Assembly (NCBI GenBank): GCA_963703305.1
Contig: OY969808.1
Span: 2,903,422-2,967,421, forward strand
Length of the DNA: 64,000 bases
DNA from: Vulcanimicrobiota bacterium
GTDB taxonomy: Bacteria > Vulcanimicrobiota > Vulcanimicrobiia > Vulcanimicrobiales > Vulcanimicrobiaceae
Direction of reading: 5' to 3'
Below, piece after piece: positions 7,083-8,009 of the stretch. The position numbers and the translations under genes were made by a program. A model generated the notes under the pieces. The model searched no databases, was not told the origin of the DNA, and worked only from the letters and a program-made list of their open reading frames with translations. The number at the start of each line of letters is the position of its first letter. Position 1 is the first letter of the stretch.

Positions 7083-8009
7083 TCAAGTGTGCTTGATGAC
7101 CGGGAACGGGTGGACGGGGAACGGGTGAACGATCACCTGCCGCAAGCAGGCGCCGTTTTCGCGCACCGACGACCCGGGTTCGACCCACGTTCCTGAGGCC
7201 GGACTCAGGCTGGCAATGCCCCAGACGGTCCCCCCGACGCAAAAGACGCTGAGCGTCGGCGGAATCGGCACCAAACCTACGGCCGTAATGACGTTGTTCA
7301 CCGAGCTGCCGCGCGGCGGAAGCTGCGGAACTTGCGTTCCCTGCACGCGTACGCACACCGATACCGCTTGCGGCGACGTAGTGATCGGCGTCCCGGCCGC
7401 GACCGTTTGCGTAGCGATTTGTCCGACGGTGTTCGTCGGACCGTACACCGGGCAGTTACCATCGGTAATCGTCAGGTTCGCAAAGGAATCTTGGGCCGCC
7501 GCAAGCGTTTGTCCGCTCAAATCGGGCATCGTCGCAACCGACGCTTTTTTATGCGCCCCCACGTACCAAAACACGCCGACGAGAATCGCAATGAGCGCGA
7601 CGGCCGCGATAACGATCCACCATGGAAACGGCGCGTGCGTCGGGCCGGCGACCGAGTACGTGACGGTCGGCCCTTCGGTGAAGTCTACGTCGGGAGTGTC
7701 CGCCAGCGCCGCAATAAGTTGAAATGAATAATCTTTGGGCGCGGCACCGTTCCCGGGCGTAACGACGACCGTAACTTGCTGCGTGGTACCCGGAGAAAAT
7801 TCGAGCGACGGTGCGCCGCGGATCGAATACCACGCTTTGGTCGACGAATCGGAAGGCTTGATTGAAAACGCGGCGCGTCGCGCGCCACCCGAGACGTTGG
7901 TGACGGAATACGGAACTTCGGCAGTTCCATCTGCTCGTAAGTTGACTCGCGCGTTCGGAGTCGTGACTTGAAAAGACGGCAATCGACCCTCACTCCCCGG
8001 ATCAACCAA
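7083..8009 (-). CDS. single-pass membrane protein: N-terminal Ig-like domain, TM helix, two PASTA-like repeats
   Basis: 308 aa. TM segment WWIVIAAVALIAILVGVFWYV. PASTA-like segments MPDLSGQTLAAAQDSFANL..VGQIATQTVAAGTPITTSPQAVSVCV and VPQLPPRGSSVNNVITAVGL..VWGIASLSPASGTWVEPGSSV. Start uncertain: TTG at 8009, or TTG at 7982 preceded by GGGAG. Confidence 0.6.
   Translation of the reverse strand: MVDPGSEGRLPSFQVTTPNARVNLRADGTAEVPYSVTNVSGGARRAAFSIKPSDSSTKAWYSIRGAPSLEFSPGTTQQVTVVVTPGNGAAPKDYSFQLIAALADTPDVDFTEGPTVTYSVAGPTHAPFPWWIVIAAVALIAILVGVFWYVGAHKKASVATMPDLSGQTLAAAQDSFANLTITDGNCPVYGPTNTVGQIATQTVAAGTPITTSPQAVSVCVRVQGTQVPQLPPRGSSVNNVITAVGLVPIPPTLSVFCVGGTVWGIASLSPASGTWVEPGSSVRENGACLRQVIVHPFPVHPFPVIKHT

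Follow-up and report, generated by a model that had tools for sequence, protein, structure and literature searches.

What would a membrane protein with peptidoglycan-type PASTA domains do in the middle of an operon for a contractile injection system (CIS)? The question is raised by 64,000 nucleotides (nt) of contig OY969808.1 from a Vulcanimicrobiota bacterium (assembly GCA_963703305.1, positions 2,903,422 to 2,967,421), which we refer to as the window. Between the CIS cap-like gene and the sheath gene lies a gene to which we gave the working name X (7083..7982, minus strand; 299-amino-acid product). Our tentative answer, to which we give not quite an even chance, is that X is a membrane/cell-wall adaptor of a type IId-like CIS, an "inside-out tail fibre." The gene and the parts of its product are as follows.

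7083..7982, minus strand: gene X, bitopic membrane protein with an immunoglobulin (Ig)-like N-terminal domain, a transmembrane (TM) helix, a PASTA domain and a PASTA-like domain, 299 amino acids (aa)
7638..7982, minus strand: N-terminal PapD/MSP-like Ig beta-sandwich, aa 1-115, with no signal peptide and no cysteine
7554..7622, minus strand: TM helix, aa 121-143, with a near-invariant FPWW motif ahead of it
7341..7532, minus strand: PASTA domain 1 (Pfam PF03793), aa 151-214, with the conserved cysteine pair C177/C210
7131..7340, minus strand: divergent PASTA-like alpha/beta domain 2, aa 215-284, with the conserved cysteine pair C248/C279
7083..7130, minus strand: Pro/His-rich C-terminal tail and stop codon, with low model confidence

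We used structure prediction and profile searches to evaluate this architecture, much of which had been proposed in an initial annotation made from the DNA letters and their translations. The AlphaFold2 (AF2) model of full-length X, with a predicted local distance difference test score (pLDDT) of 81.8, consists of a beta-sandwich (residues 1-110), a helix (121-143), and two alpha/beta units (approximately 150-214 and 215-281). The N-terminal domain (N-domain) was also modelled from residues 1-124 with 30 family sequences and again gave a beta-sandwich (pLDDT 91.6), for which the top Foldseek matches were PapD-like chaperones (SafB, DraB, Caf1M, EcpB, and SfaE among them), MSP/VAP, and HYDIN-ASH Ig domains, with E values of approximately 1e-5 to 1e-4. 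The Ig-like region of the initial annotation was borne out by these two results, and its single TM helix was recovered at residues 121-143 (mean Kyte-Doolittle hydropathy 2.84). The N-domain is the most conserved part of X, far above the ectodomain.

The C-terminal half had been described as a double PASTA, of which the first repeat passed the Pfam threshold (PF03793 at aa 151-200; 29.8 bits against a cut-off of 23.2, E = 6e-7) while the second remained below it and is PASTA-like by predicted structure only. For this domain 2, PASTA was the sole Pfam family matched (13-14 bits, E 0.05-0.1, in register in three of four orthologues), and an hhalign comparison with PASTA 1 was not significant (1.3% probability). 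The AF2 model has the same helix-then-strands order twice in tandem over aa 150-280 (pLDDT of approximately 85-94), and Foldseek aligned 136-141 columns of the C-terminal half to the multi-PASTA structures 3m9g, 5e10, and 5e12 (E 1.3e-4 to 3.7e-4). The junction between the TM helix and PASTA 1 aligns with NCBIfam NF033483, a model of Stk1-type kinases, over only positions 335-428 of its 563 and with 22.9 bits against a cut-off of 450. A PknB-like kinase remnant was considered and rejected, as there is no kinase domain in X. All orthologues with domain 2 end in the dipeptide His-Thr (His-Ser in one), and the Pro/His-rich tail ahead of it is variable.

Close homologues of X are few (15 in 5.8 billion proteins). 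A genome scan with the single X protein found no relatives, and an alignment-based scan was needed. A profile of the N-domain and TM helix, searched against 1.84 billion cluster representatives (50% identity), had 2,128 matches at E <= 1e-3 and 1,333 at E <= 1e-10, which by sequence similarity points to a family of at least 2,100 clusters with the Ig-like N-domain and FPWW TM helix in common. The match started at residues 1-6 in nearly all of the 150 matches listed, and hardly any variation is seen at N29, W51, G56, G104-P105, and the juxtamembrane F-P-W-W, among other positions. Family proteins range from about 150 to 988 aa; many of them, at 145-153 aa, consist of the N-domain and TM helix alone.

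Ectodomain and topology statistics were collected from the 126 best-scoring family members. Among these, PASTA was the commonest ectodomain (58 proteins), followed by a variety of others (Laminin_G_3, DUF11, PKD, CBM_6, F5/8-C, Tectonin, PAN, and similar), and Kelch and FG-GAP ectodomains occur in Ktedonobacter and Sphingomonas members. PASTA, which the initial annotation had considered foreign to CIS gene sets, is therefore not exotic in this family. RefSeq already labels such genes "PASTA domain-containing protein" within CIS clusters, and the literature searched contained no paper in which PASTA domains and contractile injection systems both appear. Ectodomains have been exchanged between family members around a conserved N-domain and many members are short forms, and we therefore place the shared function in the N-domain and TM helix.

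The same 126 proteins were used to evaluate membrane topology. The 15-residue flanks of the TM helix contain on average 2.16 lysine and arginine residues on the N side versus 1.77 on the C side, with a net charge of +1.13 versus +0.31; the N flank was the richer in these residues in 63 proteins and the poorer in 31. The C-terminal parts are seven times richer in cysteine than the N-domains (1.47% versus 0.20%), and the C-terminal cysteine count is even in 78 of the 83 proteins that have C-terminal cysteines. Because of these flank charges and this cysteine distribution, the absence of a signal peptide from the family N-domain, and the extracellular type of the C-terminal domains, we favour an N-in/C-out orientation for the family, which is also that of the Stk1-type kinases. 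The Ig-like domain of X would then probably be cytoplasmic and its PASTA end extracytoplasmic. The HMG-CoA lyase of the host has a cluster mate, at 90% identity or more, in Candidatus Acidiferrales, from which we judged an acidobacterial host probable; the PASTA domains would in that case lie in a periplasm. The initial annotation had expressed doubt about the topology from an HKK motif that follows the helix; the observation is true of X itself, but X is an outlier in a family whose statistics favour N-in/C-out.

We then compared the gene neighbourhood of X with those of its relatives. The CIS genes around X in the window are listed below.

8138..8818, minus strand: Pvc16_N (cap/terminator-like) protein with a C-terminal CarboxypepD_reg domain, directly upstream of X throughout the clade
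5755..7038, minus strand: CIS sheath gene, 44 nt downstream of X
5317..5754, minus strand: CIS inner tube protein (gp19-like)
4341..5315, minus strand: Pro/Ala-rich 324-aa protein with no Pfam match, position conserved in related loci
3610..4353, minus strand: CIS_tube and LysM protein (baseplate tube initiator)
2150..3709, minus strand: VgrG-like spike/hub (Phage_GPD and Phage_base_V); the annotated long open reading frame (ORF) overlaps the previous gene
1803-2153: 116-aa ORF between VgrG and gp25
1393..2001, minus strand: gp25-like baseplate wedge protein, true start probably further downstream
1..1391, minus strand: Baseplate_J (Cis11-like), N-terminal part, truncated by the left end of the window

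The related loci came from Bauldia, Bryobacteraceae, two Ktedonobacter, Sphingomonas, metagenomic contigs, and three plasmids (of Deinococcus sp. AJ005, Paracoccus sp. MC1862, and Rhodovulum sulfidophilum). In all of the approximately 18 distinct loci with enough flanking sequence, X had sheath, tube, LysM-tube, VgrG, and gp25 genes nearby, and the X-family loci belong to Acidobacteriota, Alphaproteobacteria, Chloroflexota, Deinococcota, and metagenomes (counted as five phyla). An equivalent gene was present in every related CIS locus examined, in agreement with the earlier view of X as a genuine CIS accessory.

The position of X within these clusters varies. One close locus (L001, 71% identity) retains the order of cap-like gene, X, and sheath gene, with 12 nt between X and the sheath gene. 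Three loci with 47% identity (L002-L004) retain the cap-like gene, X, and a second X paralogue next to an inverted sheath-to-baseplate block. In distant loci, X directly follows Baseplate_J and Tail_P2_I in one to five tandem copies; in phages and extracellular CIS (eCIS), tail fibres are encoded after the baseplate genes (PMC10020575, PMC10066040). The placement between cap-like and sheath genes that had first drawn attention to X thus holds for the window and L001, but the other phyla have the gene in the tail-fibre slot. Because the family elsewhere follows Baseplate_J and Tail_P2_I, the placement in the window is a clade-specific rearrangement, and the tail-fibre slot is the usual family position. 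As many as five tandem X paralogues occur per CIS cluster (L018 8406-11977; also L024, L017, and L022), with short forms of only N-domain and TM helix interspersed with long forms. No second copy of X was found in the window with the N-domain hidden Markov model (HMM).

The limits of X determine the size of the gaps around it. An open ORF extends over 7083..8009 on the minus strand and had been reported as a 308-aa protein; this ORF is real, but the start of X is most likely not its first in-frame start but TTG 7982, which gives 299 rather than 308 aa. We prefer this start because all full-length homologues are 289-301 aa long with the N-terminus M/L-PSFQVTT, a conserved Shine-Dalgarno-like GGAGTGAGGG stands just ahead of TTG 7982, an indel in L001 destroys the frame immediately upstream of the TTG start, and an identical 299-aa product is already recorded in NCBI/ENA. 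The downstream gap of 44 nt stands as described earlier, whereas the upstream gap becomes 155 nt with the TTG 7982 start and not 128 nt:

7983..8137, minus strand: spacer between the cap-like gene and X, 155 nt, which holds the Shine-Dalgarno-like GGAGTGAGGG

The junctions elsewhere in the operon are tight, as had been noted and as the ORF coordinates agree. One might suppose from these gaps, the only sizeable intergenic ones of the operon, that X is an unrelated PASTA membrane protein that resides there by chance. We find this hardly credible given the CIS synteny in every locus examined across five phyla and the gap of only 12 nt to the sheath gene in L001. In addition, neither gap flanking X contained a detectable terminator or sigma-70-like promoter.

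Searches of the 155-nt spacer for other elements gave little. No Rfam family matched anywhere in the window, the spacer included, no tRNA genes were found in the window, and the predicted RNA fold of the spacer was unremarkable (z = -1.5). A perfect 12-bp palindrome, GACCCTAGGGTC, is located at 8060-8075 (minus strand) within the spacer; it is the same in L016 and degenerate in L001, and might be a candidate operator site.

Two further genes for membrane proteins stand on the far side of the cap-like gene:

8795..9571, plus strand: polytopic membrane protein, 258 aa, approximately 6-7 TM helices, no Pfam match
9525..10001, minus strand: 158-aa protein with an N-terminal TM/signal anchor

In several phyla, CIS loci that contain X also encode the 258-aa protein, in most cases from the other strand. 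The 158-aa protein is conserved together with both; most related loci encode a single copy of it behind the X array. It might act as an immunity-like partner, or it may complete a membrane module of three proteins. The gene for the polytopic protein has a GC content of 58% versus 64% for the window, and the protein recalls the six-TM putative anchor Hbor_38620 of a haloarchaeal type VI secretion system (T6SS), a resemblance by description only. The 158-aa protein has a C-terminal cysteine pair (LQCAGPVPC).

On the adaptor reading, the cytoplasmic Ig domain would dock on the CIS particle, most likely at the attachment site of a tail fibre on the baseplate periphery; the TM helix would anchor X in the cytoplasmic membrane; and the PASTA pair would bind peptidoglycan or muropeptide in the periplasm or wall. 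X could in this way bring the baseplate to the cytoplasmic face of the membrane or orient it there, and firing could be licensed by the state of the cell wall. These roles in anchoring, triggering, and peptidoglycan sensing are what we infer from the architecture and gene context. The ectodomains of the family, which are binding modules and not enzymes or toxins, and the two membrane proteins that travel with X were counted as support. Several points weigh against this reading. The TM flanks of X itself have no lysine or arginine on the N side and two on the C side. Peptidoglycan binding by the divergent PASTA domains of X is assumed. No known baseplate-binding fibre domain matched X by sequence or fold (PDB profiles, Foldseek), and a Foldseek comparison with viral structures returned generic Ig-like matches and no specific fibre or baseplate domain. 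The imaged CIS of related lineages, in Deinococcota and Roseiflexus, are free in the cytoplasm, so that X, if it tethers the particle, may do so only transiently; this has been proposed for the Streptomyces protein CisA. Finally, the Streptomyces proteins Sco4256-4258, to which X is probably related, are toxic in E. coli and were interpreted by the authors as effectors/cargo (PMC10066040, PMC10020575).

The tail-fibre gene position, the variable binding-type C-termini, and the tandem paralogues would also suit a receptor-binding fibre of a released CIS, with the N-domain on the baseplate, PASTA binding the peptidoglycan of a target cell, and the helix acting in trimerisation or membrane attack rather than as a resident anchor. 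For Sco4242, which likewise has a TM helix, a role as a fibre was taken into consideration by Vladimirov et al. (PMC10020575). We regard this as quite unlikely, since the helix (19-23 residues, mean hydropathy 2.8, conserved interfacial FPWW motif) has the typical features of a membrane span and not those of a soluble fibre, short forms that lack a binding domain are abundant, and the related IId particles imaged so far are intracellular. The likeness of the TM-PASTA junction to Stk1 kinases suggests yet another role, that of a sensor in the envelope that would act on CIS expression or assembly and make no contact with the particle, in the manner of the muropeptide-sensing PknB-type PASTA receptors; a BTAD/AAA_16 regulator encoded near two related clusters would be compatible with this. 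We judge it very unlikely that X acts in this way, as neither a kinase nor any other signalling domain accompanies the 115-aa Ig domain on the cytoplasmic side, the short forms with no ectodomain cannot sense outside, and so strict a tail-fibre-slot position is what one would expect of a structural partner.

The most developed alternative to the adaptor comes from Streptomyces. The S. coelicolor IId cluster encodes Sco4256, Sco4257, and Sco4258, annotated as "hydrolytic protein / COG1470 family" (Casu 2023, PMC10066040; Vladimirov 2023, PMC10020575). These three proteins have a near-alike pilus-chaperone-like N-terminus, one TM helix, and a variable lectin or ricin C-terminus, and Sco4256 was detected in purified particles (PMC10066040, PMC10020575). 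Their homologues were reported from Actinobacteria, Cyanobacteria, Chloroflexi, and Deinococcus, rarely outside CIS regions, and in the triple deletion approximately 85% of the tubes had an empty lumen, which phenocopied a CIS deletion (PMC10066040, PMC10020575). It was because the triple mutant has empty tubes and behaves as a CIS deletion that the proteins were labelled "effectors."

X shares with Sco4256-4258 the PapD-chaperone-like Ig N-domain that lacks a signal peptide, the single TM helix, marked by an FP-x-W motif and followed by a variable binding-type C-terminus, and, at the family level, the occurrence of tandem paralogues in type IId(-like) CIS clusters. The Foldseek list of the X N-domain and the published HHpred list of Sco4256 have 2co7, 4djm, 5dfk, 1l4i, 7sqc, and the protein Caf1M in common. 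However, X has one Ig domain (about 115 aa, TM 121-143) where the pSCATT/Streptomyces proteins have two (about 215 aa, TM approximately 220-250), and its ectodomain is PASTA in place of ricin or lectin. For sequence comparison, the Sco4256 family was represented by the pSCATT plasmid member P0262 (also "hydrolytic protein / COG1470 family"), which has two Ig domains, an FPKW-type TM helix, and a C-terminal domain. The X N-domain profile and the pSCATT/Streptomyces profile aligned weakly in hhalign (59% probability, E = 9.3e-5, 85 columns), and the X HMM matched the pSCATT protein weakly (E = 0.027). In the other direction, the Streptomyces-family HMM matched X-family proteins below threshold and in register (E = 0.003-0.75), and these were its only sub-threshold matches outside the Streptomyces plasmid and Deinococcus grandis loci. 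X is thus probably a distant, single-Ig relative of the Sco4256-4258 family, with a similarity below the threshold for secure membership. In D. grandis, a species reported to make CIS particles, no X-family gene was found on plasmid pDEGR-1; close to the CIS genes, an annotated 1,602-aa hypothetical protein (L036 5927-10735) contains a Sco4256-like double-Ig region, which matched the Streptomyces-family HMM with E = 2.7e-24.

By this comparison, X could be cargo: the N-domain would be a loading module, and after firing the helix would insert and the C-terminal binding domain would target the envelope and cause damage. The layout and CIS context equal to those of Sco4256-4258, the weak reciprocal profile similarity, the empty tubes of the Streptomyces triple mutant, and the presence of Sco4256 within purified particles all speak for cargo, and the tandem arrays, in which the N-terminus is conserved and the C-terminus varies, are reminiscent of polymorphic effectors. 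We nevertheless consider a cargo role unlikely for X. Its family has C-terminal PASTA, Kelch, FG-GAP, PKD, and lectin domains, none of them catalytic or pore-forming, and many members have no ectodomain. No immunity gene is paired with each paralogue, there being a single small membrane-anchored gene after the whole array. Toxicity in E. coli is, in our assessment, non-specific for an over-expressed membrane protein, and the even C-terminal cysteine numbers fit a resident extracytoplasmic domain.

With a single VgrG ORF and a single Baseplate_J gene, as in IId, the CIS of the window is type IId-like, an assignment made by gene organisation. Chen et al. noted unexplained subtype-specific genes in lineage II and the absence of fibre genes from most IIc/IId loci. 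The CarboxypepD_reg domain of the cap-like protein is transthyretin-like, is kept in related loci, and is the source of the RefSeq gene name. The Pro/Ala-rich, low-complexity protein encoded between the tube and LysM-tube genes (4341-5315) has approximately 32% identity to its counterparts of 315-405 aa and may be a tape-measure or length-determining substitute. The Deinococcus sp. AJ005 plasmid p96k has, between the Tail_P2_I gene and the PASTA gene, a gene (L033 12804-13721) for a polytopic membrane protein of 305 aa that contains the HExxH-like motif HEFVH. A large gene for a BTAD/AAA_16/TPR-type regulator adjoins two related CIS clusters (L001 1402-4887 and L033 16819-19809) and may control them.

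The initial annotation had drawn an analogy to the membrane-anchored CIS of Streptomyces and the thylakoid-anchored CIS of cyanobacteria, and this analogy is apt in architecture for two proteins of such systems. CisA (Sco4242) of S. coelicolor was shown experimentally to be N-in/C-out and is required for CIS firing (PMC12237407). It is encoded just after the baseplate genes and was proposed to be an adaptor/sensor that brings the CIS to the membrane (PMC12237407). CisA has the bitopic layout that is predicted for X, with an extracytoplasmic C-terminal domain of a sugar- or solute-binding type. The two differ in their parts: on the cytoplasmic side, CisA has about 285 largely unstructured residues with a Cys-rich segment, whereas the Ig domain of X is compact and free of cysteine, and there is no relationship between the C-terminal domains (about 150 aa and solute-binding/carbohydrate-degrading-like in CisA, PASTA and PASTA-like in X). 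CisA homologues have been reported only in actinomycetes, and the Roseiflexus study described close cisA homologues as absent there. CisA is therefore an analogue of X and not a member of its family.

The second is Cis13 (All3316) of the thylakoid-anchored Anabaena CIS, a fibre-position gene product whose N-terminal part binds the baseplate and whose TM segment spans aa 122-154; deletion of this segment releases the CIS from the membrane (PMC8894136). The TM position is nearly equal to that of X (121-143), and the X family also occupies the fibre slot. Cis13 is described as a trimer with a triple alpha-helix and with no ectodomain described, whereas X carries one. Two X N-domain profiles searched against PDB chains at E <= 10, with the 7B5H baseplate chains assumed to be included, had chance-level matches only, and Cis13 was not among the top 50 Foldseek matches of X. 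Cis13, too, is an analogue of X.

X is in part anticipated by the Sco4256 and CisA literature. Its PASTA ectodomain appears to be new, as do the occurrence of the family in several phyla, the arrays in the fibre slot, and the tension with the "effector" label. CisA accounts for membrane finding and the decision to fire in actinomycetes only; the X family is large, present in several phyla, and situated in the fibre slot, which makes it a general candidate for the link by which cytoplasmic, fibre-less CIS find the membrane and fire. It also puts the cargo status of the Streptomyces relatives in question. A broader generalisation, which we put forward as doubtful, is that "inside-out tail fibres" are widespread and that type IId-like CIS baseplates are wired through the membrane to swappable ligand-binding modules in the periplasm or wall. 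If this were true, the docking and firing of free cytoplasmic CIS would be gated by the state of the wall (e.g., by muropeptides or peptidoglycan damage), and the Streptomyces "effectors" Sco4256-4258 would be membrane adaptors and not cargo.

Outside of CIS, the PASTA 1 domain and the TM-PASTA junction of X are like those of the PknB/Stk1/PrkC kinases and class B penicillin-binding proteins (PBPs), but X has no kinase or transpeptidase domain, a divergent second repeat, and a cysteine pair in each repeat. The predicted cytoplasmic side has a parallel in the eukaryotic tail-anchored MSP tethers VAP/Scs2, which combine a cytosolic MSP/PapD-like Ig domain with one helix, as proposed for X. The VAP/MSP structures 8hs7, 6tqr, and 2rr3 were among the Foldseek matches of the X N-domain (E of approximately 4e-5 to 3e-4), and the short family members of 145-153 aa share the exact VAP/Scs2 layout, a resemblance that, judged from the predicted structure, is one of fold and layout only.

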